Part shown: one piece after another, positions 161 to 13,246 of the stretch
Numbering within the stretch: position 1 is the first letter of the stretch
Layout of the letters: each line of letters begins with the position of its first letter
NCBI GenBank assembly: GCA_036149055.1
Contig: JAYZQJ010000096.1
Location: 1-13,246 of the forward strand
DNA: 13,246 bases
Reading direction: 5' to 3'
Source: Myxococcota bacterium
GTDB lineage: Bacteria; Myxococcota_A; Polyangia; Polyangiales; Sandaracinaceae
Program-made: the position numbers and the translations under genes
Notes under the pieces: generated by a model
The model's input: the letters and a program-made list of their open reading frames with translations, nothing else
What the model was told of the DNA's origin: nothing
The model's database searches: none

Positions 161-212
161 CGAGGAGGGGACGGAGTGAACTTGTGAACTTACGTAGTTC
201 ATCCGCCTACGA
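161..212 (+). repeat. Intergenic repeat family A, copy 1
   Basis: cgaggaggggacggagtgaacttgtgaacttacgtagttcatccgcctacga; 50/52 identical to 3082-3133. Confidence 0.95.
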
Positions 213-291
213 AGGTGGCTAGCTCGGTAGCCAGCCGAGCCTCCGATTCGCGGCCCACGCGGCTGGCATGGGTCCTGCGCTCGCGCGGGGC

Positions 292-1602
292 ATGAAGCTC
301 CGCCTCGTCGCGCTCCTCTTCGCTCTCGGCGCCTGCGCCACCGACGTCGGGGAGCCCGCCGCCGACCTCGGCGCGATCGGGACCAAGGCGGACGACGCGC
401 GGGTTCGCGAGGTGGAGCTCGACCTGGCGCCGGGCGAGGTGCGGCGCTTCCGGGTCTCGGCGCTCCGCTTCTTCGCCACCCTCTCGCAGGGCGGCGCGGT
501 CCCGGCGCGGCTCTCGGCGAAGCACTACGCGATCGAGCTCGAGGGCGAGGCCTCCTTCGAGCCGGAGCTCGACGTCGCCGCGCCGGCCGGCGAGGAGGAG
601 ACGCTCCGCAACTGGACGCTCCGCGTGCACAACCTCGGCGACGCGCCGCTCCGCGGCACCCTGCGCGTCGAGTCGATCGCGGAGCTGCCGGTCGAGGATG
701 GCCTCCTGCGCCGCGCCACCGTCACCGTCGAGCCCGGCGGCGTCCGGCGCCTCCGCGTCCGCGGCCCGAGCGTGCGCGCCGAGCTCCGCTCCCCGGTGCT
801 CGCGCGGCTCTCCGCCAAGCACTACGAGATCGACGTCTACGGCGAGCCGAGCCTCACCCCGACCGTCGAGGCGATCAGCGCGCGCGAGCGCAACTGGACG
901 ATCCGCGTCGAGAACCTCTCGCTCGACGAGACCCTCACCGGCGAGCTCACCGTCCGCGTGCTCACCGACGCCGACGCCCTCGCGGCCCGCTGGCGCGACA
1001 CCTTCGGCCCGGCGATCGAGGAGGCCGGCGGCGCCGACGGACGTCTCTCGCGCGCCTCGGCCGAGCGCATCGCGCGGCGCGACGACGCCCTCCGGCTCGC
1101 GGCCGACAACGGCACCTGGTTCTTCGACACCCACGACCAGGCCACCGTCTCCGCCGCGCGCCTGCTCGACGTGCTCACCGCCGAGGCCGCGCTCCACCTC
1201 CGCGCGGTCGCCGGACCCGACGGCCTCGTCTCGCTCGCCGAGGCCGACGCGCTCCCCGCCATCTGGCGCGCCGACGTCCGCTACCTCCTCGGCGCCGGCG
1301 AGCCCGACCCGCGCACCTGGGACGACTACGTCGCCGAGCTCCGCGCGCTCGTGCTCGACGCCTTCAGCACCGGCGCCCACACCCCGGTCGACGGCGTGCC
1401 CGGCCCCGTCCGCTTCCGCCGCGAGCTCGACCGCTTCCACGACGCCGGCTTCGATGCGAGCTTCTCTCTCTGGGTCGAGGAGGGCACGCTCTTCGTCTCG
1501 GTCGGCGCCTCCGCCGGCTCCCCCTCGCGCCACCTCGTCGGCTTCCACGATCTCGGCGCCGCGCCCCCCGCGCCCTCGATCGTCCATGGTGAGGATCTGT
1601 AA
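292..1602 (+). CDS. Lipoprotein with two tandem beta-rich repeat domains and a helical EF-hand-like region
   Basis: ORF 268..1602; likely start ATG 292 (MKLRLVALLFALGA-C lipobox), followed by TKAD; duplicated ARLSAKHY..EG..RNWT.RV.N segment. Confidence 0.85.
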   Translation: MKLRLVALLFALGACATDVGEPAADLGAIGTKADDARVREVELDLAPGEVRRFRVSALRFFATLSQGGAVPARLSAKHYAIELEGEASFEPELDVAAPAGEEETLRNWTLRVHNLGDAPLRGTLRVESIAELPVEDGLLRRATVTVEPGGVRRLRVRGPSVRAELRSPVLARLSAKHYEIDVYGEPSLTPTVEAISARERNWTIRVENLSLDETLTGELTVRVLTDADALAARWRDTFGPAIEEAGGADGRLSRASAERIARRDDALRLAADNGTWFFDTHDQATVSAARLLDVLTAEAALHLRAVAGPDGLVSLAEADALPAIWRADVRYLLGAGEPDPRTWDDYVAELRALVLDAFSTGAHTPVDGVPGPVRFRRELDRFHDAGFDASFSLWVEEGTLFVSVGASAGSPSRHLVGFHDLGAAPPAPSIVHGEDL

Positions 1603-1637
1603 TTCGCCGCGCCGCACCTCGCGATCCACGGTGCGGC

Positions 1638-2240
1638 ATGCGAAGCCTCGCCCTCGTCGCGCTCTGTCTCTCCCTCGCCCTCGGCTGCGCCATGTCGCGC
1701 GACGAGCTCGGGCGGCTCGAGACCGAGGTGGCCGCGCGCAACGCCGAGCGGCAGCGGACCGCGGGGGCGGAGCTGGAGGGGGAGGGTTACGTCGACGCCG
1801 AGGCGGAGCGACGGTGGGCGCGCCTCGACGAGGAGGATCGACAGCGCTGCCTCAGCCGCGAGCTCGGCGAGGCCCCGATGCGGATCACGCTGGACGAGCG
1901 CGAGCTCACCGCGGACCCGGCGGCGACCTGCGACTTCTTCCGCGGGCGCGTCGCTCGGCTCGAGGCCGCCGGGCCGGTCGTGCTCCACGCCATCCCCGGT
2001 GTCGGCGTCATGCGCGCGCCGGGCGGCGAGCACGTCCTCGTGCACACCGTGCTCCGCACCGTCCGGACCCACGAGGTCCTCGTCGACATGGACTGCGACC
2101 ACATGCCGCGCGTCGAGCCCGATCCGCTCGAGCTCGGCGCCCACGTCCCCGTGCTCGTCGCGCCCGAGCGTCCCCGCGAGATCACCCACGAGGTCGACCG
2201 AGAGGTCGTCGAGGTGGACTGCACCCGCAACACCTACTGA
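1638..2240 (+). CDS. Hypothetical lipoprotein
   Basis: MRSLALVALCLSLALG-C lipobox; GC3-biased codons; normal amino-acid composition. Confidence 0.8.
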   Translation: MRSLALVALCLSLALGCAMSRDELGRLETEVAARNAERQRTAGAELEGEGYVDAEAERRWARLDEEDRQRCLSRELGEAPMRITLDERELTADPAATCDFFRGRVARLEAAGPVVLHAIPGVGVMRAPGGEHVLVHTVLRTVRTHEVLVDMDCDHMPRVEPDPLELGAHVPVLVAPERPREITHEVDREVVEVDCTRNTY

Positions 2241-2318
2241 GGTCACCCTCGTCCCCTCGAGCCGCAACCCTTCGTGCGACTCCGAATGGAGAGAGCGCCA
2301 CGTCGTGTACGATTCCGC

Positions 2319-3071
2319 ATGCACGCCGCCTTCGTCCTCGCCTTCGCCTTCTGGTGGTCCGCCTGCGGCTCGGATCACGCCTCGGGGCCGCCGGTCCGCG
2401 AGCAGGTCGTCGATCTCCTCGAGGCTCGCCACGGTGAGCGCTTCGAGGTCACCTTCGTGGGTGGGGGCGTCAACGCGGGGAACCTCTTCGACGGGCCGTC
2501 GCGCACCTACGAGGCCGATCTGCGCAGCCCGACGGATCCCGAGCTGCGCGCGCACGCGCTCGTCCGGGTCGAGGAAGGACGCGTGCTCGAGGTGGAGGAC
2601 GACGTCCGACAGACGCGGGCCGAGAGGGAGCTGGCGTCGGCGGCGCGGGAGGCGGCTCGAGTCGAGCTGCCGGAGCTGGCGAGCGTGTGCGCCGCCGCCA
2701 CCTTCGAGCCTGACGCCGAGCCCGACCCCGCCTCGCCCAAGGCCGGCCTCCGCCGGGTCCACTACACCCTGAACGTAGGAGGCCTCGACGCGCCCGCGGT
2801 CCTCGCCGCCAAGGAGCGCGTTCGCCGCTCGCTGCTCGCCCTGGGCAACCCAGGTCGCGAGCCCGCGGGCGTGGAGATGCGCTTCTTCTCGGGCCCCGTG
2901 CCGCCCCCGCTCGACGACACCCCGTGCACCACCGAGAACACCACCTCTCTCACCCTCTCCGTGCCCACCCTCATGCTGCCCCTGCCCGCCGCCACCACCC
3001 CCGAGAGCTTCGACGCCGACACCACCGCCATCGGCTTCGGCCGCCGCGGCCCCCTCGGCGCCCAGCCCTGA
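2319..3071 (+). CDS. Hypothetical lipoprotein
   Basis: ORF 2274..3071; likely start ATG 2319 (MHAAFVLAFAFWWSA-CGS), with TACGAT 5 nt upstream. Confidence 0.75.
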   Translation: MHAAFVLAFAFWWSACGSDHASGPPVREQVVDLLEARHGERFEVTFVGGGVNAGNLFDGPSRTYEADLRSPTDPELRAHALVRVEEGRVLEVEDDVRQTRAERELASAAREAARVELPELASVCAAATFEPDAEPDPASPKAGLRRVHYTLNVGGLDAPAVLAAKERVRRSLLALGNPGREPAGVEMRFFSGPVPPPLDDTPCTTENTTSLTLSVPTLMLPLPAATTPESFDADTTAIGFGRRGPLGAQP

Positions 3072-3081
3072 GGCCTCGGCT

Positions 3082-3133
3082 CGAGGGGGGGACGGAGTGA
3101 ACTTGTGAACTTACGTAGTTCATCGGCCTACGA
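3082..3133 (+). repeat. Intergenic repeat family A, copy 2
   Basis: Direct repeat of 161-212 with 2 mismatches; starts 10 nt after the stop codon at 3071. Confidence 0.95.
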
Positions 3134-3223
3134 GGCCGAGCGTCTCGCTCGCGAGGTGAACAACCCGTGACGTCCGCGCCGCGTCGGCTTGCGGGGCGGC
3201 GCGCGGTTGCGATGCTCGCGCGC

Positions 3224-4291
3224 ATGATCGCCCGCACCCTCCTGCTCGCCCTCGCCCTCGCCGCCTGCGACGGCGCCTCCGACGCGCCCACCGACGCCGG
3301 CTTCGACGCGACCGTCGCCCTGGACTCCGCCACCGACTCGGCCATCGACTCGGCCGTCGACTCGGGCGCGGACGGCGGCCTCGAGCGCGACGCGGGCCTG
3401 GAGACCGACGGTGGCGCCGTGACCGACGCGGGGCAGCCGACCGAGCTGGCCTTCCGGGTCGTCGACGCGCAGCTCCCCGAGGGCGCGGGCGTCGCCCGGG
3501 GCCTCGAGCTGTTCACCTCCGAGGCCGCCCTCGCCGCGTACTTCGGCGGGGTCGCGCCCGCCGGCGTCGACTTCTCGCGCGAGCACGCGCTCCTCTACAC
3601 CGAGGGCGACAAGCCCTTCCCCGGCCACCTCGCCACCGTCACCGGGCTCGCGCTCAGCGCCGATGGAAGCGAGCTGCTCGTCGACACCGCGCACCGCGAG
3701 CCCGGCGCCAGCTGCGAGACCCTCGGCCTGCGCCGCGTCGCGTTCCAGCTCGTCGCCTTCGAGGCCACGCCGACCCGCGCCACCGAGCGCGCCCACGCGT
3801 CGTCCACCTTCGACTGCGCGACCAGCGGCGGGGCCGAGCACGCCGCCTGCTCCGAGGCGATGCTCTGCGGCGCCGGCCTCATCTGCGGCAACCTCACGCG
3901 CGGCGACGCCGGCCTCTGCTACCCGGCGGCGCTCTGGGACACCTTCACCGACCCGACCGAAGGCGCGCTCACCGACGACGGCGTCACCACCCGCACGCTC
4001 ATGGCCTCGGGCCTCGCGACCGTCGACGTCGACGTCATCGCGTACGTCGAGCTCACCCACGCCGACCCGTCCGAGCTGCGCATCACGCTCACCAACCCGT
4101 CGGGCAACGAGGTCGTCGTCTTCGACCGCGAGCCCGTGGCCAGCCCGGTGCGCCTCGCCCGCGTCCCGGTCGGCTTCTCCGGCGACGAGGACGTCAACGG
4201 CGAGTGGACCCTCCGCGTCACCGACCACGTCCCCGGCAACACCGGCACCCTCACCCGCTGGTCCGTCGAGATCGTCAGCCGCTGGGATTGA
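3224..4291 (+). CDS. Lipoprotein with a PrcB C-terminal-like domain and a C-terminal proprotein convertase P-domain
   Basis: Start 3224 or 3212; lipobox LALAA-C; D/S/A/G-rich linker; VDFSREHALL..G.K...G (PrcB_C-like); Cys-rich linker; LTHADPSELRITLTNPSG...GEWTLRVTD...GTLTRWSVEI (P-domain). Confidence 0.85.
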   Translation: MIARTLLLALALAACDGASDAPTDAGFDATVALDSATDSAIDSAVDSGADGGLERDAGLETDGGAVTDAGQPTELAFRVVDAQLPEGAGVARGLELFTSEAALAAYFGGVAPAGVDFSREHALLYTEGDKPFPGHLATVTGLALSADGSELLVDTAHREPGASCETLGLRRVAFQLVAFEATPTRATERAHASSTFDCATSGGAEHAACSEAMLCGAGLICGNLTRGDAGLCYPAALWDTFTDPTEGALTDDGVTTRTLMASGLATVDVDVIAYVELTHADPSELRITLTNPSGNEVVVFDREPVASPVRLARVPVGFSGDEDVNGEWTLRVTDHVPGNTGTLTRWSVEIVSRWD

Positions 4292-4306
4292 GCTCGCGAG
4301 GTCGGC

Positions 4307-5980
4307 TCAGAAGCGGTGCAGGTACAGCCCGTTGTCGGGTCCAGGCGCGCCTCCGCGGAGCACGTCGAAGTAGCGCACGTTGACCAGGACGGCGGCGCCG
4401 GCGCGGTCGACGTGCTCGGTCCCCGGGCCGAGCGCGACGAGGGGGAGGTGCACGTCCCGTGCGATGACCCGCTCGGCGCCGCCTTCGATGACCGCGAGCT
4501 CCATCAGCGAATCGGGATCCGAGCCGTAGGCGTGACCCAGCACCACGCGGTCGGGGCGCACGACGGTGGCCTGCGCCCTGACGTCCTCGGAGAGCACCCG
4601 CGGCGCCCACTCGGGGGCGGAGGCGGTCATCAGGTCTCCGTCGCGCCAGTAGACGAGCGAGTCGGGCCCCTGGAAATGGAGGTAGCTCCCCTCGACGCCC
4701 GGGAGCACCGCGGCGTCGGAGCCGTCCGCGTTCATCAGGGTGGTCGGACCGGAGGTCTCGGCGACGGCCACGCGCGCGCCCTCGATGGCGAGCGAGGCGG
4801 CCAGCGCCCCTTCGTCCAGCACGCGCGACGGCGCGCCGCCCTCGAGCTGCGCTCGCTGGAGCTCCACCCCGAAGAAGAGCCAGCCGTCGCTCGAGATCCC
4901 TCGAAAGGCGAGCCGGCTGCGGCCGCCGGGCCCCATCGGGCTGAGCCGATGGATCTCCGCGCCGTCGTCGAGGCGGTGCACGTAGAGCTCGACCGGGGCG
5001 CGGGAGCTCTCGCTCGCGACGTAGGCGACGCCGTCGTGCTCGAAGACGCGCGTGTGGTCGGCGAGCCCCTGGACGGGGAGCTGGGCGACCCTCGTCACCT
5101 CGTCCGTCGCCGGGTCGACGGTCGAGATGATGAAGCCGCCGACCTCGTTGTGGACGCAGACCACGCGCCCCTCCACCGCGCCGACCGGGAGACAACGGTC
5201 GGGCAGGATCACCAGCGCGCCGGTCTCGAAGTCCCACGCCACGCCCGTGGTGTCGCCGACGAACGGCTCGGGCCGAGGGGTCGAGGGGGCGGCGAAGAGC
5301 GCGTAGCGCGAGTCGCCGGAGAAGCCCTGGAACCGAGGTTGACGGTTGGAGGCAGCCGTGCGGACGGCGAAGAGCTCGCGCGCCTCACCGTCCGCCGCGT
5401 CCCAGGCGAACACCAGGCCGTCGTCCTCCCCGGTGAAGAAGACCGCGCGCTGCCCGTCCGGCGAGAGCGCGTAGTCCCACGCCGGGTCGGCCAGCCGCGC
5501 CCCCGCTCCTTCGACGCAGCGCGTCCCCTCCGCGCGGTACCCCTCGTCACACTCGCAGACCGGGCCCGTCGACCCGGCGACGCAGCGGCCGTGGTCTCCG
5601 CAGTCGACGTCGGCGCAGGCGCCCGACGCCGCGGACGGCATGCAGTAGGTGGCCTCCACCTCGCGGTAACCCTCGTCGCAGCGGCAGAGCGGCCAGTCGG
5701 GCTCTCCGCGCACCACCACGCACTCCCCGTGGCCGTCGCACTCCACCCCGTCGCACTCGCGGCCCGGGACGACCGGCACGCAGGCGACGCCGTCCGCGCG
5801 GTAGCCCGCGTCGCAGGCGCAGGTGGGGGTGCCGTCGGCGTCCACGCACCGGCCGTGACCCGAACAGTCGACGCCGCCGCACGCCTCGCCGACCGGCCCC
5901 TCGCAGCCTCCGAGCGCGGCGAGCGAGATGCCCACCGCGAGGGCTGCCGCGACGCTCAGCTTCGACCTTCCGTGATGCAT
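4307..5980 (-). CDS. Lipoprotein with three EGF-like repeats and a TolB-like beta-propeller
   Basis: ORF 4307..6049; likely start ATG 5980; lipobox LGG-C; three C..V.C..HG.C....C.CD.GY....C units (5516-5881); LSPDGQRAVF, FSGDSRYALF and ISSDGWLFF blade-like motifs. Confidence 0.88.
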   Translation of the reverse strand: MHHGRSKLSVAAALAVGISLAALGGCEGPVGEACGGVDCSGHGRCVDADGTPTCACDAGYRADGVACVPVVPGRECDGVECDGHGECVVVRGEPDWPLCRCDEGYREVEATYCMPSAASGACADVDCGDHGRCVAGSTGPVCECDEGYRAEGTRCVEGAGARLADPAWDYALSPDGQRAVFFTGEDDGLVFAWDAADGEARELFAVRTAASNRQPRFQGFSGDSRYALFAAPSTPRPEPFVGDTTGVAWDFETGALVILPDRCLPVGAVEGRVVCVHNEVGGFIISTVDPATDEVTRVAQLPVQGLADHTRVFEHDGVAYVASESSRAPVELYVHRLDDGAEIHRLSPMGPGGRSRLAFRGISSDGWLFFGVELQRAQLEGGAPSRVLDEGALAASLAIEGARVAVAETSGPTTLMNADGSDAAVLPGVEGSYLHFQGPDSLVYWRDGDLMTASAPEWAPRVLSEDVRAQATVVRPDRVVLGHAYGSDPDSLMELAVIEGGAERVIARDVHLPLVALGPGTEHVDRAGAAVLVNVRYFDVLRGGAPGPDNGLYLHRF

Positions 5981-5986
5981 CGCCGG

Positions 5987-5992
5987 AGAGTA
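5987..5992 (-). promoter_or_regulatory. Putative -10 box of a leaderless transcript
   Basis: TACTCT 6 nt upstream of ATG 5980; no Shine-Dalgarno. Confidence 0.45.
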
Positions 5993-6031
5993 CCGAAGGC
6001 ACGGGTGTCCGCGAATGGGAACATGGGCCTC

Positions 6032-6060
6032 GGGGACGCTCGTCGTCATATCGTCATTCG
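6032..6060 (+). repeat. Intergenic repeat family B, copy 1
   Basis: ggggacgctcgtcgtcatatcgtcattcg; identical to 9586-9614 and 12812-12840. Confidence 0.97.
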
Positions 6061-6105
6061 GCGCGGCCGCCCGAGCCGTGGAGGAAGGGCGGTCTGCGGG
6101 CGTCG

Positions 6106-6111
6106 TAGCTT
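6106..6111 (+). promoter_or_regulatory. Putative -10 box of a leaderless transcript
   Basis: TAGCTT 6 nt upstream of ATG 6118. Confidence 0.4.
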
Positions 6112-6117
6112 GCTTGC

Positions 6118-7719
6118 ATGACCATCCCTGCGCGCTGCGCGCGAGTCGTGGCCCACGGTGAGCCGCTCGACGCCGGACCCGGCGAGACGCTCTACACCCT
6201 CCAGATCAACGGCACCCTGAAGATCGAGGGCGCGGCGAGCCTCGAGACGCTGCGGGAGGCCGTCGAGTCGGGCTTCTTCGACCAGGTCAGCTGGATCGCC
6301 GTGGACCGCGACGCCCAGCTCGAGCGCTTCCCCGAGAACCTCGGGCGGCTGCCGCTCGAGGGCATGTCGATCGGCTCGGATCGCTTCACCGGCTGGGACA
6401 CGCTCGCGGCGCTCCCCATCGCGTCGCTCTTCCTCGAGGAGTGGGTGAGCCGGCTCGGCGAGGGACTCGGCGCGAACACGAGCCTCCGAGAGCTCAGGCT
6501 CCAGAGCGCCAAGAACCTGACCGAGCTCCCGAGCGACTTTCGCCAGCTGAAGCTCACGCGGGTGACGTTCCACAAGGGCCAGATCGACGCGCTCCGCGCT
6601 CACCTGGAGCACATGCCCAGCCTGGTGGCGGCCACGGTGGCGGGAGCGGGCGTGAGGCTGCAGGGCGGACAGCTCTCCATCGGCAATCCCACCGGCAACC
6701 ACCGGGCGCTGTGGAGAGACTGGCATGGGCACGAGCGCGCCCTGGAGCTCGCGTTCGATGGGTTCGGTGAGCCCGTGACCCGCCTCGTGCTCGAGCCCCA
6801 GTCGACGCTCCCGGCGCTGCCGGCTCCCTCGCGGCTGCCCGACGTGGAGGCCGTCGTCGTGCACTCGGGCGCGCTCGACGACTGGAGCAGCGTCTTCCGG
6901 CTCGGCTCGCTGAAGAGCCTCGTCGTCGACAAGAAGGCGAGCGGCAGCCTGGAGGGGATCTCCGCGCTCACGAAGCTCGAGACCTTGATCGTGAAGGCGA
7001 AGGGCGTCACCGAGCTCCCCGCGGAGATCGCGGGCATGCGGTCGCTGGAGACGATCGAGGTGAGCCCCGCGCTGCGTCCGGCCCTCGAGCCGATGAGCGA
7101 CGCGCGGACGGCGCTCGCGCTCGAGGCGGTGCTGGAGCGGCTCGAGCGCGCGCTCGCGCAGACCGCGCCGGACTACCTGGCGAGCCTGGCCCCCGGCGTC
7201 GACGACGCGGCCCTCGACGCGGTCGAGGCGGAGCTCGGCGTCTCGCTCCCCGCGACGGTGCGCGCGCTCTATCGGTGGCGCGACGGTCACCTGAAGCAGG
7301 ACGGCCGGTTCGTCTACCTCCGCAGCTTCGAGTCGCTGGCGAGCGCGGCGTCGACGTGGAAGATGCTGCGCGAGATGGAGCGCGCGGGGGAGTGGGCGCG
7401 CGACGGAGAGCAGCCTCCCGGCGTGTGGTCCGATCGCTGGTTCCCGTTCGCCCGCTGGTCGAACGGCCTCCACCTCTGCGTCGATCTCGAGGGCACCTAC
7501 CGGGGCCGGCGCGGGCAGGTGCTCGAGGTCTGGATGAAGGACAGCGACCGTCAGATCGTGGCTCCGGACCTGACCGCCTGGCTCGACGTCTTCGTCCGCG
7601 CGCTCGAGGACGGCTCGATCCGCGAGACGGCGGGCGGCGACCTCCACTGGGACCGTCCCCCGGCCTACGCCGCGATGCGCGGCTACCCGGTCCGCAAGAC
7701 CAGCCGCCAGGCGCCGTGA
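6118..7719 (+). CDS. Leucine-rich-repeat protein with a C-terminal SMI1/KNR4 (SUKH) domain
   Basis: LRELRLQSAKNLTELPSDFRQLKL and LTKLETLIV..KGVTELPAEIAGMRSLETI (LRR); LAPGVDDAALDAVEAELGVSLPATVRALYRWRDG...WFPFA...LCVDL...GQV...VAPDLTAWL (SMI1/KNR4). Confidence 0.9.
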   Translation: MTIPARCARVVAHGEPLDAGPGETLYTLQINGTLKIEGAASLETLREAVESGFFDQVSWIAVDRDAQLERFPENLGRLPLEGMSIGSDRFTGWDTLAALPIASLFLEEWVSRLGEGLGANTSLRELRLQSAKNLTELPSDFRQLKLTRVTFHKGQIDALRAHLEHMPSLVAATVAGAGVRLQGGQLSIGNPTGNHRALWRDWHGHERALELAFDGFGEPVTRLVLEPQSTLPALPAPSRLPDVEAVVVHSGALDDWSSVFRLGSLKSLVVDKKASGSLEGISALTKLETLIVKAKGVTELPAEIAGMRSLETIEVSPALRPALEPMSDARTALALEAVLERLERALAQTAPDYLASLAPGVDDAALDAVEAELGVSLPATVRALYRWRDGHLKQDGRFVYLRSFESLASAASTWKMLREMERAGEWARDGEQPPGVWSDRWFPFARWSNGLHLCVDLEGTYRGRRGQVLEVWMKDSDRQIVAPDLTAWLDVFVRALEDGSIRETAGGDLHWDRPPAYAAMRGYPVRKTSRQAP

Positions 7720-7776
7720 AGCCCTCCCCGTTGCGCTCGGTCGTCTCGGTTCACACCTTTCAGCGGGGGAGGGACG

Positions 7777-8316
7777 ATGAGGCACGCATTGCTGATCTGC
7801 GCCGCGCTCGCGCTGGGCTGCGGCGAAGAGGAGGCGGCGGCGCGCGAGACCGCCGAGACGGCCGAGGTCGAGGAGGCCCCGGAGGTCGAGGCGCCCGAGC
7901 CCGCGCCCGGCGGCCTCGTCGGCCTGATCGAAGGCGAGCCCTTCTCGGCGCGCGGCGTGCTGGCGCGGCGGGCTCCGGGCGACGCCATCGAGCTGCGCAT
8001 CTTCAGCCGCGCGGTGGACTGCGCGCGCTTCCGCGAGGACTACCGGCTGGCCGAAGGAGAGAAGGTCGTCACCGTCTTCCTCCGCTGGCCCAAGGCGGCC
8101 GGCGACACCATCGCGCTCCGGGCGAGCGAGACGCAGGATCGTCTGCAGTTCTGCCGCGGTCGCGCGAGCGGCTTCGCCTCCTGTGAGCCGCGTGCGCCCG
8201 AGCAAGGATCAATGACCATCGTCGAGGCCAGCCCCGAGGCGGGCGCGCTCACCTTCGACGTCTCGAGCGACGCGGGCGAGCTCTCCGGCCGCCTCGACTT
8301 CGCGCTCTGCCCCTGA
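7777..8316 (+). CDS. Hypothetical lipoprotein
   Basis: GGAGG upstream of the ATG; MRHALLICAALALG-C lipobox; acidic E/A/P linker. Confidence 0.85.
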   Translation: MRHALLICAALALGCGEEEAAARETAETAEVEEAPEVEAPEPAPGGLVGLIEGEPFSARGVLARRAPGDAIELRIFSRAVDCARFREDYRLAEGEKVVTVFLRWPKAAGDTIALRASETQDRLQFCRGRASGFASCEPRAPEQGSMTIVEASPEAGALTFDVSSDAGELSGRLDFALCP

Positions 8317-8338
8317 GGGGAGAGGCGCGGGTCCCGCT

Positions 8339-8383
8339 CTGAAACCAGGCTGAAACTGCATGACGTCGGGGGGCACCTAGAAT
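8339..8383 (+). promoter_or_regulatory. Putative promoter: CTGAAAC direct repeat (11-bp period) and TAGAAT -10
   Basis: ctgaaac at 8339-8345 and 8350-8356; TAGAAT at 8378-8383. Confidence 0.4.
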
Positions 8384-8440
8384 CGCTCTGGCCGCAGCAA
8401 CGTCGCTGCGTGACCGCCCTTCGTCATGGAGTCTCGAATC

Positions 8441-8725
8441 ATGAACCGCACCATCTCGACCACCCTCGCCGCGCTCGCTGTCTTCGTCGTCCTCCTCGGC
8501 CCCTCACTCGCGGAGGCGCGCTGCTTCTCCTTCCGCGGCGAGTCGATCAAGGTCTGCGTGTCCGGTAGCGGCGGCAGCGCAGAGCGCCAGGCCGAGTCCG
8601 TCTGCGAAGACGTCGTAGGTCACTCTTGCAGCGCCTCGGGCAACAGCGGAGAGTGCCGACGCTCCGGCTCGGTTCGCTGCTACGACGCGAGCGGCAACGA
8701 GCAGAGTCACATCGACCCCGACTGA
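8441..8725 (+). CDS. Small secreted cysteine-rich protein
   Basis: GGAG at 8428-8431 favours ATG 8441; Sec signal peptide ending AEA; six Cys in the mature part. Confidence 0.8.
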   Translation: MNRTISTTLAALAVFVVLLGPSLAEARCFSFRGESIKVCVSGSGGSAERQAESVCEDVVGHSCSASGNSGECRRSGSVRCYDASGNEQSHIDPD

Positions 8726-8756
8726 TGCCGATGGCTCCGGCGCGGAGCGGCCGCCC

Positions 8757-9551
8757 TCAGGGCTTCTGCGCCGTCACGATGTGGGCGGGGCTGGCGAACT
8801 CCACCGCGCCACCCCGCGTCTGGTGAGCCGCGAGCGCCCGCGGCGCCTCTCGCCGCAGCAGCGCGTACTGCGCCTCGTCGATGCGGTCGGCGAGCGTCCA
8901 CCCGCGCACGTCCGTGTGCACCCACGCGTCGATCGACTCGAACCGCGCCACCCCGACCTCGGTGCGGACCTCGGCCCCGGCCACCCCCGCCCGCTCGAAG
9001 AGCGCGCTCAGGGCGGCCGGGTCGCCGAGGCTGAAGGGAGCCCGGAGCTCGTCGGCGATCGCCACGCCGAACAGCCGCTCGAGCAGCTCGACCATCGCCT
9101 GGTAGCCGGGGGTCTCCGCGAGCGGCCCCCACACCGCCACCGCCAGCCGGCCTCCGGGCGCGAGCACGCGCCACATCTCGGACACCGCCCTCGCTCGGTC
9201 CTCGAAGAACATCAGGCCGAACTGACTCCCCACCGCCGCCAGCTCGCCGTCATCGAAGGGGAGCGCCTCGGCGCGGCCCGCGCGCCACTCCACCTCCGGG
9301 GCCAGCCGCGCGGCCACCGCCAGCATGCCCTCGTTGCAGTCGAGCCCCACCACCCGCTCCGCGCCGAGCCTGCGCGCGAGCTCCCGGCCCAGGACCCCCG
9401 TGCCGCAGGCGACGTCCAGCGCGCGCCCCGGACCCACCGGCTCGAGCGCCCGAGCCACCCTCGGCGCCCACTCCGCGAAGAGCGCCGGGACGAAGAACTC
9501 CTCGTACACCGACGCCGCGTCCTGCCCGATCTGCCCGCGAGAATCGCCCAT
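8757..9551 (-). CDS. Class I SAM-dependent methyltransferase (UbiE-like)
   Basis: ALDVACGTG motif I, GLDCNEGML, AEALPFDDG, EMWRVLAPGGRL; GGAGG upstream. Confidence 0.93.
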   Translation of the reverse strand: MGDSRGQIGQDAASVYEEFFVPALFAEWAPRVARALEPVGPGRALDVACGTGVLGRELARRLGAERVVGLDCNEGMLAVAARLAPEVEWRAGRAEALPFDDGELAAVGSQFGLMFFEDRARAVSEMWRVLAPGGRLAVAVWGPLAETPGYQAMVELLERLFGVAIADELRAPFSLGDPAALSALFERAGVAGAEVRTEVGVARFESIDAWVHTDVRGWTLADRIDEAQYALLRREAPRALAAHQTRGGAVEFASPAHIVTAQKP

Positions 9552-9585
9552 GGCCTCCAGATGCGCACGCCACCGTCGCCCGCCC

Positions 9586-9614
9586 GGGGACGCTCGTCGT
9601 CATATCGTCATTCG
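9586..9614 (+). repeat. Intergenic repeat family B, copy 2
   Basis: Exact 29-nt copy. Confidence 0.97.
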
Positions 9615-9668
9615 CCGCGAGGACCGGCGCGGCTGGACTCCGGCGACGCTCGGAACAAGATGCGCCCG

Positions 9669-10145
9669 ATGAGACATCTCCTCGCGCCTCTGCTCGTGCT
9701 CTCGGCCTGCGGCTCCGGGGCGCCGCCCCCTCGGGTGGCGGAGACGGAGGAGGTCGCGCCCCCGGCGGACGAGGAGCGCCCGGACCGCGCCGCCGAGGCG
9801 CGCCGGCTGCTGAGCGCGCTCGAGCGGATCGATATCGAAGACCCGGCGGACGCGCGCGGCGCGGCGCTCGAGCAGCTGCGGGCGCTCGAGCTGTCGTGGA
9901 ACGAGCACGTCGCGCTCCGGTCCCTCTGCGCGCAGGGGTTCGGCACCGTCGGCGAGGCGGAGCGCCTCCAGGCCGAGGCGAGGCGGGGCATCGAGGCGAT
10001 CGAGGCCACGGGGGAGGAGCCCACGCCCGAGGAGGCCCGGCGCCTGAGCGACCTGCTCGAGGCCTCCAACGCCGCCATCGCGCGCAGCCGAGTCGAGCTC
10101 GACCAGTGCTTCACCGCGCGCCGGGAGCTCGAGCTCGGTCTGTGA
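9669..10145 (+). CDS. Hypothetical alpha-helical lipoprotein
   Basis: 3' part of ORF 8781..10145; MRHLLAPLLVLSA-CGSG lipobox at ATG 9669. Confidence 0.8.
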   Translation: MRHLLAPLLVLSACGSGAPPPRVAETEEVAPPADEERPDRAAEARRLLSALERIDIEDPADARGAALEQLRALELSWNEHVALRSLCAQGFGTVGEAERLQAEARRGIEAIEATGEEPTPEEARRLSDLLEASNAAIARSRVELDQCFTARRELELGL

Positions 10146-10206
10146 CGCTACACGCGAGCGTGGCGGACTCGCCCGACCGGCGCGGGTCGTTAGACTCCCG
10201 GCGCCG

Positions 10207-10968
10207 ATGAAGTACGCGCCGCCGCCAGAGATGTTGGCTCGCCTCGACGAGGCGAGCGTCGAGCGGGCGCTGCGAGCCTTCTACGTCACCGGGGGCGACA
10301 GCGCGCTGCGGCCGGAGGAGCGCAAGAAGATCCCGCAGCTCGCGGGGCTCCTGCCGGCGCTCGCGCGCACGGGCCCGGATCCGCGCCTCGTCGACGCGGC
10401 GGCGGGGCGAGCCCCGGTCGGGCTCATGGCCGCCCGGCTGCTGGGCTGGTCGAACGTGGTGGTCATCGAGCGCGACCCGGGCCGGGCGGCCTCCGCGCGC
10501 CACGCCGTGGCCCGGGTCCCCGGCGTCGAGGTCGACGTGCGCGAGGGCGCCGTGGCCGACCCGGGCGTCTGGCCCAGCGCGGCCGACGTGGTCGTCGCGC
10601 TCCACGCCTGCGGCCCGGCCTTCGACGACATCGTGAGCCAGGCCATCGCCCAGGGCGCGCCCTGGGTCCTCGCCGTCCCCTGCTGCTACTCGAGCGCGAT
10701 CGCGTTCTCCGATACCGCGCGCGCCTGGGCCGACCACCTGGGCGTCGCCACCCAGGCGCCCGTCCGCCGTCGCTTCGTCGAGTCCCTCATCGACACCGAG
10801 CGGACCCTGCGCCTCGAGTCCCGCGGCTACCGCGTCTCGGTGCAAGCCTTCGTGCCCCCCGCGGTCACCCCCCACAACCTCCTCTGGAAGGCCCACCGCG
10901 TAGGCCCCAGCCGCCGCTCCACCGCCGCCGAGGAGCGCTGGCGCCGCCTCGTGAAAGGGCCGCCCTAG
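10207..10968 (+). CDS. SAM-dependent methyltransferase (Methyltransf_32-like, LHACG/PCC type)
   Basis: LVDAAAGRAPVG, VVALHACG, VPCCY, D..R...LE..GY.V, TPHN motifs. Confidence 0.88.
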   Translation: MKYAPPPEMLARLDEASVERALRAFYVTGGDSALRPEERKKIPQLAGLLPALARTGPDPRLVDAAAGRAPVGLMAARLLGWSNVVVIERDPGRAASARHAVARVPGVEVDVREGAVADPGVWPSAADVVVALHACGPAFDDIVSQAIAQGAPWVLAVPCCYSSAIAFSDTARAWADHLGVATQAPVRRRFVESLIDTERTLRLESRGYRVSVQAFVPPAVTPHNLLWKAHRVGPSRRSTAAEERWRRLVKGPP

Positions 10969-11019
10969 TGCGAGATCCATCCCGGTAGAAGGGGACCTGG
11001 CTCGTTCGCTGAAGCGCGT

Positions 11020-11046
11020 GGGGACGCTCGTCGTCATATCGTCATT
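11020..11046 (+). repeat. Intergenic repeat family B, copy 3
   Basis: 27-nt core identical; followed by gg instead of cg. Confidence 0.95.
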
Positions 11047-11055
11047 GGCTCCCAC

Positions 11056-11078
11056 GGGACGAGCTTCCCCCATCCCCA
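11056..11078 (+). repeat. Intergenic repeat family C, copy 1
   Basis: gggacgagcttccccatccccat; 22/23 identical to 12775-12797. Confidence 0.9.
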
Positions 11079-11135
11079 TCTCGCGCGGCATGCTCGCGCC
11101 GTGCGACAGGACAGCAACCCAACTGGCGCAGCGCG

Positions 11136-11978
11136 GTGATCCGTCGAGCGCTCGCCCTCGGGATCGCGGCCCTCGTGCTCTGGCCCGGCGCCGAGCACGC
11201 CGCGCCCGGGTATCCGCACCTGGATCACTTGGTCCCCCAGCCCGCGCCGGGTCCGGTCCCGCTCGTCGTCGCGTGGGAGCGTGGGCGCTGCCCGTGGCCG
11301 ACGCTGGTGCTCTACGACGACGGCGCCTGGCTCCGCGCGCCCACCCTGGACGCCGACTGCGCGCTCGACCTCGAGCGGGGCCGCCTGGACGACGCGCGCG
11401 CCGCCGACCTCGCGCGGCGCCTCACCGCCGCCGTCCAGCGCGCGCCGCAGCAGACCTTCGCGCTGCCGGGCGCGGACTGGAACACCGTCGTCGTCGCGGC
11501 GCGCACCGACCTTGGCTACCGCACCGTCTGGATGGAGGCGCTGCTGCCGCGTCGCCCGCGCGCCTTCCACGAGCGCGCGGCGCGAGAGCCGGTCGCGCCC
11601 ATCCCTGGCGCGATGCTGCCGAGCCTCATGTACCCGGCGCCGCTCCCCGAGCCGGTGCTCCACCTCAACGACCTCCTGACCGAGCTCGACCTGCGCGGCG
11701 CGCCCTTCACCCCGGAGCGGAGGCTCGTGCGCGTCTGGCCCGACGACCTGCCCCCGCGCGACCCGGAGCCGAGCGCGCCCTGGCCCGCCGCGCTCCCCGC
11801 GTCCGCCTGCCGCGCCGCCTGGCGGACCGCGAACATCGCCTGGCTCCCCGCGAGCGCCGCCGCGCGCCCCGGCCACTACCGGCTCGGCCGCCTCGGCTGC
11901 CGCCTCGACCCGACCATCCCCGCGCTCCCCGCGCACGAGACGATCTTCGACCTCGCCCGCAGAGTGCCCCCGAGCTGA
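11136..11978 (+). CDS. Hypothetical secreted protein
   Basis: GTG start; signal-peptide-like N-terminus (IRRALALGIAALVLWPG); GC3-biased codons. Confidence 0.7.
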   Translation: MIRRALALGIAALVLWPGAEHAAPGYPHLDHLVPQPAPGPVPLVVAWERGRCPWPTLVLYDDGAWLRAPTLDADCALDLERGRLDDARAADLARRLTAAVQRAPQQTFALPGADWNTVVVAARTDLGYRTVWMEALLPRRPRAFHERAAREPVAPIPGAMLPSLMYPAPLPEPVLHLNDLLTELDLRGAPFTPERRLVRVWPDDLPPRDPEPSAPWPAALPASACRAAWRTANIAWLPASAAARPGHYRLGRLGCRLDPTIPALPAHETIFDLARRVPPS

Positions 11979-12007
11979 AGCCCGGACCCTCGCGAGACCG
12001 CTCGCCG

Positions 12008-12484
12008 TCATCGCTCGCCCAGCAGCCGCTCCAGGTGCTCGGCGTCGACGCGGTCCTTCATGCGCCCCGTCGCTCGCTTGTTCTCCAGCAGAGCGCGTGG
12101 GCCGATCACCGGAAGAGTCACGCCCTCGAGCGTCACCTCCCGGCGCTCGGACCACGCTCGCTCCCACGAGACGCCCGAGAGCTCCGTCAGGATGTCGATG
12201 CGGCGGGGCGGAAGGCCGATCTGGTAGACGGTCCCCTTGGTGACGAAGTCCTCCGCGGTCACGCCATGCGCCGCCACCGGCGCGCCGTAGCGGAGAAGCG
12301 CCTCGAGCACTCGCGGAGCGTTCTGATCGTCGGGCCGCACGAAGACGTCGAGGTCGCCCGTCGCGCGCGGCAGACCGTGCGCGGCCATCGCGTGAGCGCC
12401 GACGACCAGGAACTCGACGTCCGCCTCCAGAAAGATCTCGAGGAGATCCGTGAAGTCCTCGTTGAAGCCGGGGTACTCACTCAT
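12008..12484 (-). CDS. Nucleotidyltransferase-superfamily protein (DUF6036-like)
   Basis: FLVVGAHAMAAHGLPRATGDLDVFV, IDIL, NKRATGRMKDRVD; start ATG 12484 overlaps the upstream stop (ATGAGTGA). Confidence 0.9.
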   Translation of the reverse strand: MSEYPGFNEDFTDLLEIFLEADVEFLVVGAHAMAAHGLPRATGDLDVFVRPDDQNAPRVLEALLRYGAPVAAHGVTAEDFVTKGTVYQIGLPPRRIDILTELSGVSWERAWSERREVTLEGVTLPVIGPRALLENKRATGRMKDRVDAEHLERLLGER

Positions 12485-12719
12485 CGCCGGGACGGATGAT
12501 GCGTCCGGGAGCATCGCTCCGCGAGTACGTAGGCAACGGGCGACCGCTCATCGCCCACGCGTCGAGGGCCAGGCGCCACATCATGCCCAAGCGCTCCGCG
12601 GCGGTGGTCGTGCCCGACAGGTCCTCGGGCGGCTCGCCCCCCAGCGGGTAACGGCTCACCGGCCACCCGGCGCGCGCGGCGGCCCTCCGAGTTCGCTCGT
12701 CGTCGCGAGAAGCGCTCAT
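12477..12719 (-). CDS. Small protein (80 aa) coupled to the nucleotidyltransferase; putative antitoxin or partner
   Basis: ATG 12719 preceded by TATCCT at 7 nt; TAAERLGMMWRL helix; 8-nt overlap with the downstream gene. Confidence 0.75.
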   Translation of the reverse strand: MSASRDDERTRRAAARAGWPVSRYPLGGEPPEDLSGTTTAAERLGMMWRLALDAWAMSGRPLPTYSRSDAPGRIIRPGDE

Positions 12720-12726
12720 GTTCGAC

Positions 12727-12732
12727 AGGATA
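12727..12732 (-). promoter_or_regulatory. Putative -10 box of a leaderless transcript
   Basis: TATCCT 7 nt upstream of ATG 12719. Confidence 0.5.
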
Positions 12733-12773
12733 GCCGATGAAAGGGCCCACGACCCTCGGGGACCGAGGAGGAC

Positions 12774-12800
12774 GGGGACGATCTTCCCCATCCCCATTCG
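12774..12800 (+). repeat. Intergenic repeat family C, copy 2
   Basis: ggggacgatcttccccatccccattcg; shares both ends (ggggacg...cattcg) with family B. Confidence 0.9.
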
Positions 12801-12811
12801 ATCCGGCCGAC

Positions 12812-12840
12812 GGGGACGCTCGTCGTCATATCGTCATTCG
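12812..12840 (+). repeat. Intergenic repeat family B, copy 4
   Basis: Exact 29-nt copy; ends 7 nt before the stop codon at 12848. Confidence 0.97.
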
Positions 12841-12847
12841 TACGGCG

Positions 12848-13246
12848 TCACGACACGTAGTAGAACAGCGCGTCGAAGACCGTGTGGGGCGGGGTACGGA
12901 GAGGCACGTCCACGTCGACGACCCGGCGCATCCGCGCGCTCGAGAGGAAGGTGTACCCCGCGTCCTCGAGCGTGCTCCGCAGCGCCTGCTCGTGCGCGGG
13001 CCACCCTTCGCCTGGCGGCAGACGATACAGGTCGTCCGGCCCGAGGATCGTCGCTCCTCCGCCGCGCTCGAAGGTGGTCGTCTCCGCCGGCCCGTAGACC
13101 GCGACGGGCGCGAGGATGGCCAGATGGACGGCGAGCCCCGGCTGCACCGTCACCTGCCCGCGCCGGTACGCGGATCCGGGCTCGTGCAGCAGCAGGTCGA
13201 GATACGACGCGCCGTACCGTCGGCGGACGACCTCGAGCCCGAGCTG
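12848..13246 (-). CDS. Hypothetical protein, 5'-truncated by the window edge
   Basis: Frame of ORF 12848..13153 stays open to 13246 (QLGLEVVRRRYGASYLDLLLHEPG...); ends TVFDALFYYVS. Confidence 0.7.
   Translation of the reverse strand, partial: QLGLEVVRRRYGASYLDLLLHEPGSAYRRGQVTVQPGLAVHLAILAPVAVYGPAETTTFERGGGATILGPDDLYRLPPGEGWPAHEQALRSTLEDAGYTFLSSARMRRVVDVDVPLRTPPHTVFDALFYYVS

Follow-up and report, generated by a model that had tools for sequence, protein, structure and literature searches.

The 13,246-nt stretch of DNA analysed here (hereafter the window; contig JAYZQJ010000096.1 of the Myxococcota bacterium assembly GCA_036149055.1) carries three families of GGGGACG-anchored repeats, A, B and C, which are very likely dispersed terminal inverted repeats (TIRs) belonging to Y1 HUH nucleases that reside in the chromosome and carry a DnaA-like helix-turn-helix (HTH) at the C-terminus, the class known as TIRtron/TIRYT. 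The TIRs of these resident enzymes are concentrated in a plasticity island, and we lean, with far less assurance than for their identity, towards the view that they contribute to its rearrangements. They do not delimit fixed integron-like cassettes; we are dealing with a known class of element that shows new signs of site-directed joining, and for which a cassette system is plausible. The original prediction, made from the window alone, had proposed an array of gene blocks separated by co-oriented recombination sites or junction scars of a non-integron gene-capture system. The window is the entire contig C96 of a 9.9-Mb draft genome (G000; 73 % GC, 289 contigs, 96 % complete), which is compared below with a congener (G001); L-numbers designate loci and X-numbers sequencing runs, and none of the conclusions draws on the unpublished genome G023.

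Y1 HUH nuclease genes framed by the repeats

Using a motif scan and tblastn, we identified two Y1 genes of G000 framed by inward-facing repeats of the sister families D (C63:7979-9010) and E (C209:58106-58996). In the congener, the Y1 genes at L070, L048 and L076 are framed by TIRs resembling those of families B (24/26 positions), A (20/26) and C (15/17), respectively, and in relatives many GGGGACG repeats frame genes of the C63/C209 enzyme family. The original prediction was thus right to place the enzyme outside the window and to count an HUH Y1 or RAYT-like nuclease among the candidates. H60 and H62 of the HxH motif, together with Y123 and N127-P128 of the Y-x3-NP motif, are invariant in 9/9 aligned proteins, the latter occurring as YIHNNP, YHHRNP, YLHRNP and YVHDNP (the class 2 motif), and the L076 protein of the congener lacks the proline of NP. 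A model of the C63 protein (pLDDT 83) found its best match in TnpA-REP 4ER8 (E 8e-6), with the ISDra2 and IS608 transposases also matched; additionally, it matched DnaA domain IV 3PVP (Foldseek E 0.0018, TM 0.80 by target), and a DnaA profile match of the enzyme (E 0.0013) again points to a C-terminal DnaA-like HTH.

Synteny pairs the C63 gene with L048 (A-like TIRs) and the C209 gene with L076 (C-like TIRs) of the congener, and their proteins are only 47 % and 70 % identical to these syntenic counterparts, against a median of 84 % for orthologues; the genes therefore stay in place while enzyme and site drift. It is plausible that the C63 and C209 enzyme lineages used families A and C as sites at an earlier time. 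Furthermore, 19 of the 20 loci with sites of more than one family combine A with D, or B, C and E among themselves (expected 40 %, p 3e-7), a pairing that matches two enzyme clades. An enzyme gene was present in 6/6 genomes with at least five B/C/E-type sites, and the genomes in which none was found (21/41) have 0-2 sites, although kin in this sample are not independent. At the syntenic position of the congener's B-framed gene, G000 has other genes, and the B-cognate protein had no relative in the wider collection of genome contigs. The seven best Pfam Y1_Tnp matches in G000 form a second Y1 family, which was rejected as the enzyme because it has its own, different repeat; TCTCTGCCGAATCGAG surrounds its seven similar copies on C132, C4, C83, C116, C198, C143 and C29 (L001-L007).

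Distribution of the sites and the family A junction

All eight A, B and C copies listed in the original prediction were recovered at their positions, on the + strand and, by our own gene calls, between genes. The two family A copies are identical at 50/52 nt (161-212 and 3082-3133), the four family B copies are identical across 27 nt (6032, 9586, 11020 and 12812), and of the family C copies that at 12774 is canonical and that at 11056 degenerate (GGGACG anchor, two differences). The intervals between sites measure 2921, 2944, 3554, 1434 and 1792 nt, in agreement with the blocks of about 2.9, 2.9, 3.6, 1.4 and 1.8 kb described before. The closeness of sites to stop codons was likewise confirmed, as the A unit begins 10 nt past the g3 stop and B12812 finishes 9 nt ahead of the g15 stop, and the heterogeneous cargo labels hold by Pfam, with an SMI1/KNR4 (SUKH) protein (E 1e-16), two methyltransferases, P-domain and EGF proteins and a weak AbiEii match (E 0.0055). 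The earlier list omitted a truncated insertion sequence (IS)-like end (10965-11005) and a decayed reverse site (~7725-7729).

In the whole genome, five family seeds gave 309 matches at up to four mismatches in 9.9 Mb, against 5 in 2.46 Mb of shuffled DNA, so that the abundance of the repeats exceeds chance. After 14 family C matches with four mismatches were discarded as likely chance, 295 sites were kept (A 62, B 60, C 34, D 64 and E 75), which make up 176 loci on 98/289 contigs (97 solo, 42 inverted and 37 tandem). These loci cluster, 67/176 having a neighbour within 5 kb, whereas 2000 random placements between genes gave 25.6 on average and 44 at most. The co-orientation that the original prediction had stressed stands for the window (6/6 loci; C96 is the extreme case in the genome) and falls as a property of the system, for the repeats occur genome-wide in mixed orientation: outside C96, successive polar loci within 5 kb were 16 same to 14 opposite (p 0.43), and 30 to 22 at any distance. 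The window's co-orientation is probably due to local propagation or chance. Site strand was weakly related to local GC skew at third codon positions (GC3), used as a proxy for replication (73 to 50). No clear enrichment of lipoprotein-type cargo was found beside sites (53/262 vs 1415/8206), no target-site duplication was seen by eye around 16 A dimers, and an analysis of shared flanks was swamped by other repeats.

With respect to gene context (our own gene finder, counted prior to the family C filter), 61/91 polar loci lie behind a 3' end and 37/91 in convergent gaps, as do 24/37 dimers, against a convergent background of 396/3164. Such a distribution would suit TIRs that are passive passengers, spreading like repetitive extragenic palindromic (REP) sequences and REPINs and persisting where they are harmless, at gene 3' ends, in convergent gaps and in dispensable islands, whilst the island turns over through ordinary horizontal transfer and homologous or illegitimate recombination; we regard this as a rather doubtful account of the repeats and return to it below. 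Two convergent gaps that hold D dimers in G000 (C47:55600-55922 and C149:28574-28835) have B-type or A-like dimers in the congener (L117 and L100), which points to reuse of the site or conversion between families.

An integron or cluster of attC sites lacking an integron integrase (CALIN), a recombinase target array, or a set of regulator binding sites would each account for small heterogeneous cargo, and 5/6 site loci of the window do lie directly upstream of a + strand gene. Genome-wide, however, just 36/91 polar loci point into a same-strand gene. An integron integrase (TIGR02249) scored above the cut-off in 0/2 genomes (G000 and G001), and the window contained no RYYYAAC...GTTRRRY pair at 40-190 nt spacing on either strand and no Rfam match, in line with the original prediction, which had seen no attC site. 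It had also named a tyrosine or serine recombinase as a possible enzyme, and here it did not hold: none is encoded on C96, C170 or C80, and G000 has its four tyrosine recombinase genes and its single serine recombinase gene on other contigs. Since Y1 genes demonstrably have these repeats as their TIRs, this group of explanations is already largely refuted and we consider it very improbable.

Solo family A sites share a layout of arm-GTAG-N9-CTAC followed by unrelated DNA. CTAC is exact in 25/29 of them, whilst N9 takes 59 forms among the 62 A sites, and the match to a second arm stands at 0.9-1.0 at CTAC and then falls to 0.45, 0.28, 0.21 and 0.07, an edge too sharp to be expected from random decay of dimers. 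The N9 of the two window copies (167 and 3088) is identical at 8/9 positions, a level reached by 10/406 solo pairs. The exact family A pattern had 0 matches in the wider collection of genome contigs. In IS608 the cut is made 3' of the tetranucleotide. Guide tetranucleotides choose the cleavage sites of IS200/IS605 elements, and GTAG does so for RAYTs, according to the accessible text of PMC8266576; by analogy, GTAG could select CTAC as a cleavage site in family A.

Gene turnover in the congener and in conspecific strains

The window overlaps contig C170 by 127 nt, and two congener contigs, C124 and C76 (141-nt overlap), make up the orthologous TIR-rich region. The anchor genes are collinear between the two genomes, whereas only 4/15 window genes (g11, g12, g2 and g4) were located in the orthologous region, with the order of g11/g12 and of g2/g4 swapped without inversion and with g12 flanked by two direct E-type sites; g8, g9, g13 and g14 have matches elsewhere in G001. 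Island junctions without a repeat are broken in the congener as well, and the region is a true plasticity island. The end of g1 seems to be fused at a TIR-free junction, since its last bases and stop (1589-1602) belong to the g2 upstream module common to the congener. In a comparison of 59 G001 loci covering ~1.1 of 11.1 Mb (39 picked around TIRs and 20 TIR-poor controls), gene order was kept at 4/71 TIR junctions, compared with 31/150 nearby junctions lacking a TIR (within 3 kb; p 0.005) and 270/533 distant ones.

Further differences between strains emerged from metagenome loci L164-L169 and L198, which match at 98-99 % to the window. In the L166/L198 strain g6 is missing from its start codon to the final ~10 nt, B6032 is doubled, and the g6 break adjoins a reverse E/C-type stub that is decayed in the window; B9586 is also doubled in the L164-L169/L198 strain. 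Behind g12 the strain holds 3.1 kb more DNA. This extra segment contains sites of families C, B and E, duplicates 49 nt of the end of g15 and, ~20 nt away from an E dimer, duplicates 240 nt of the end of g12; if the strain's two copies of the g12 end recombined, the state seen in the window would result. The polymorphism was confirmed in contigs of four runs from four studies. An X18 contig joins 6121 to 7725 (g6 missing), X18 and X6 contigs depart from the window at 10949, the X18 contig rejoining at 12768 with g12 missing, and in X2 and X6 the contigs with g6 and g12 are covered less deeply; tabulated joints, mostly short chance matches, were set aside. At least half of window positions 220-10200 is represented in 19 runs. 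Gene content and order thus do change around the sites in relatives, as had been anticipated, through the swaps in the congener and the strains without g6 or g12, and gene order across the repeats is not conserved. The blocks of 1.4-3.6 kb did not prove to be the cassettes they had been taken for: strains differ by single genes (g6 and g12) or sub-blocks, and X6 and X18 each recovered g1-g3 and g4-g5 unbroken on single contigs.

To place these breaks against the repeats, we collected 30 alignment ends from 37 loci taken as conspecific; the loci were chosen for holding a B site and the ends are paired. Before curation, the distance to a TIR was at most 30 nt for 11 ends and at most 100 nt for 17; for gene ends near B sites the corresponding shares were 12.7 % and 25.3 %. 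After four tandem-TIR expansions and one end in a multi-copy gene were dropped, and the g6 end was moved to its true break, 13/25 ends lay within 100 nt (p 0.004 vs 25.3 % of gene ends). As the loci were selected for B and the ends are paired, this excess is suggestive. On C194 a B site ends exactly at the border of a 2.2-kb loss, and on C243 the second arm of an A dimer is replaced by a gene right behind CTAC.

Several results weigh against an active part of the repeats in these changes. The TIRYT activity is a predicted function, derived from sequence and modelling. The G000 assembly contains no TIRYT gene with A, B or C repeats around it, so our reading assumes either that the D and E enzymes also use these sites or that an enzyme has been lost. 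GTAG-N9-CTAC was seen in family A alone, with no such motif in B, C, D or E, and the N9 of A shows no pairing covariation. The limits of congener homology fall at gene or promoter edges (1589, 3180 and 10195) and not at repeats, and the g6 break lies ~60 nt inside of B6032, at the start codon. When only gaps of at least 80 nt are considered, 4/69 TIR junctions and 10/80 nearby TIR-free junctions keep their order (p 0.26), and 6/25 curated ends lie within 30 nt of a TIR (p 0.09; the ends are not independent and the loci were fetched for holding B). The nearest site is a long way from the strain indels on C80, C88 and C170 (1 kb or more on C80 and C88). Moreover, of 88 local events in which genes were inserted, deleted or replaced between G000 and the congener, a few of them overlapping, 71 have a TIR in neither genome. 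Genes in this genus turn over without requiring the repeats.

The TIR-free indels, the broken TIR-free junctions of the window and the distant strain indels on C80 and C88 are what passive passengers would predict, as is an 88-nt dimer insert with unaltered gene order. Set against that account are the excess of breakpoints within 100 nt of TIRs, the exact edges on C194 and C243, and pieces of a truncated gene and of an IS that abut the outer side of TIRs.

A stronger role would be an HUH-driven, integron-like capture system, in which resident domesticated enzymes cut out single-stranded DNA circles, each of a gene plus a site, from between sites of like orientation and integrate them into sites elsewhere, so building accessory or immunity-type arrays. 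It would be consistent with the resident, syntenic enzymes, the sharp CTAC junction, the position of g12 between direct E sites in the congener and the swaps of g11/g12 and g2/g4 without inversion, with B sites that enclose single genes on C116 and C250, and with a cassette-like unit behind the C209 enzyme (C209:58996-59335, L071). This 323-nt unit consists of a 108-codon gene, with its ATG supplied by the reversed TIR, and an extra direct E copy, so that the gene lies between two direct E copies, and it is missing at the equivalent place in the congener. Such a system needs co-orientation, however, which is not significant outside the window; the blocks of the original prediction do not move as units, most gene turnover occurs without sites, and no circle junctions were seen in assembled contigs. 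We therefore judge it unlikely.

Proposed mechanism, related systems and features of the window

If the TIRs are active contributors to island turnover, rather than its organizers, the HTH would bind the iterated arm of the TIR and the HUH/Tyr core would nick single-stranded DNA near the site, in family A directly behind CTAC and possibly guided by the complementary GTAG. Joining of the nicked DNA to another site or to neighbouring DNA would spread the repeats and might, as side effects, produce tandem copies, adjacent deletions and, now and then, a captured or exchanged neighbouring gene; part of the gene loss could then follow from homologous recombination between the resulting direct repeats, whilst the island would also turn over without them. 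More tentatively, the resident TIRYTs may be HUH site-specific gene shufflers, with a guide-selected cut (GTAG-N9-CTAC in A), exchange of downstream DNA, capture of gene plus site beside their own gene and in islands, and changes of specificity that leave orphan families; this we hold to be possible though improbable. If true, it would represent an integron-like diversification system on a different chemistry. G000 offers matched enzyme-site pairs, a predicted cut position and loci polymorphic in wild populations, and these pairs and loci make the role of resident Y1 transposases directly testable. Should TIRYT enzymes move neighbouring genes, they would be an unrecognized driver of accessory-gene turnover and a possible tool for sequence-directed recombination of single-stranded DNA; should they not, a well-resolved REPIN-like repeat family is described here.

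TIRtrons and dispersed TIR families were defined by Di Nocera, De Gregorio & Rocco (2013; PMC3733652), subclass 2.1 of TnpA-Y1 with a DnaA-like HTH was equated with TIRtrons and found in about 15 % of the species sampled by Quentin et al. (2018; PMC6006769), and resident RAYTs were described by Bertels et al. (2017; 10.1101/119735); these sources, and PMC8266576, are compared here as far as their accessible text extends. As in TIRtrons (PMC3733652), a Y1 HUH gene lies between long inward TIRs beginning GGGG, TIR families are dispersed as singles, dimers and groups, and a genome has several TIRYT genes and families; the TIRs (C63, C209, L070, L048 and L076) are likewise unrelated to GTAG REP hairpins. 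Unlike TIRtrons, three of the five families have no cognate gene in the assembly, and the anchor is GGGGACG[GCA], with a G at position 7, one base off the published GGGGWSAS; some published TIRs lack that motif, which is hence not obligatory (PMC3733652). With subclass 2.1 (PMC6006769) and RAYT group 1 (10.1101/119735), the enzymes share HuH and Y---NP motifs, a C-terminal Bac_DnaA_C-like HTH, low copy number, low identity between copies and the lack of classical REP hairpins, but the proteins are longer (297-344 aa vs a median of 238) and fall below the Pfam Y1_Tnp cut-off, and the repeats reach 34-75 copies per family.

A resident single-copy enzyme, inverted dimers with a variable spacer and a preference for convergent gaps recall REP/REPIN-RAYT and IS200/IS605 systems (PMC8266576), and GTAG beside a complementary tetranucleotide recalls the guide-directed choice of cleavage sites in IS200/IS605. 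Unlike REP/RAYT systems (groups 2 and 3), there is no GTAG-footed hairpin monomer, short direct repeats occur within the arms, the enzyme possesses an additional HTH, and 5/5 proteins score 16-43 bits with NF047646, below its cut-off of 80. Integron cassette arrays consist of unrelated accessory genes split by repeats, in an order that differs between relatives. The island resembles them in both respects and differs in having no IntI, no attC, mixed site orientation genome-wide, several genes per interval and many breaks away from sites. In the open-access text we found no paper linking these elements to gene or cassette arrays or testing their activity. Beyond the accessible part of the TIRtron account (PMC3733652) and of this literature are the association with an island, the excess of strain breakpoints, the junction motif with its sharp CTAC edge, the turnover of TIRs at fixed enzyme genes and the clade-specific pairing.

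The features of the window are collected in Table 1. The IS-like repeat at 10965-11005 starts at CTAG, which is also the g11 stop, and has 9 copies in G000 and many in the genome G010; its start and shared continuation suggest that it is the end of an IS-like element.

Table 1. Repeat sites, strain-variable genes and other features of the window
Feature	Position	Strand	Remarks
TIR family A, solo site	167..210	+	30-nt arm ending GTAG, 9 variable nt, CTAC; arm 20/26 identical to TIR of congener TIRYT L048
TIR family A, second solo site	3088..3131	+	Pairs with first copy as 52-nt direct repeat around g1-g3
TIR family B	6032..6058	+	Tandem double in a conspecific strain; 24/26 identical to TIR flanking congener TIRYT L070
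g6, LRR-SMI1/KNR4 (SUKH) gene	6118..7719	+	Pfam; in other strains lacking from the start codon on, up to the final ~10 nt
Decayed outer end (TCCCC) of reverse E/C-type TIR	7725..7729	-	Better preserved in strain without g6
TIR family B	9586..9612	+	Tandem double in a conspecific strain
Truncated end of separate IS-like repeat	10965..11005	+	Cut 15 nt before B11020
TIR family B	11020..11046	+	One of four identical copies
Degenerate TIR family C	11056..11079	+	Sequence comparison
g12, strain-variable gene	11136..11978	+	In congener between two direct E-type TIRs, ahead of g11 instead of behind
3' part of g12	11740..11978	+	Duplicated beside E dimer in strain with 3.1 kb extra DNA here; X18 contig spans 11740-12837
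TIR family C	12774..12797	+	15/17 identical to TIR of congener TIRYT L076
TIR family B	12812..12838	+	One of four identical copies
15 accessory genes of plasticity island	268..13246	.	Island runs on into contig C170 (127-nt overlap)

CRISPR was rejected as a description of the repeats, on the grounds of their sequence spacing of 1.4-3.6 kb with genes in between. Positions 1-156, which close the contig and abut A167, consist of a different GC-rich, REP-like repeat with 142 genome matches of at least 100 nt. On the C170 side, locus L168 holds a 2-kb gene pair, presumably a Cys-rich small protein and a dehydrogenase, that is present in the strain and in the congener island and not in G000, and its edges are TIR-free. 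Elsewhere in G000, a gene set that we take to be IS66-like lies between two B sites with identical upstream flanks (C25:901-3624), B sites border each of three small genes at C116:25248-26493 that presumably resemble toxin-immunity proteins, and SUKH-like genes also adjoin sites on C4 and C9. Finally, multi-copy genes of 106-107 aa, which we assume to be of the four-helix-bundle type, are found beside (GAGTCC)n tracts and TIRs in both species (C35, C128, C4, C8 and C25 of G000; L116 and L120 of G001).

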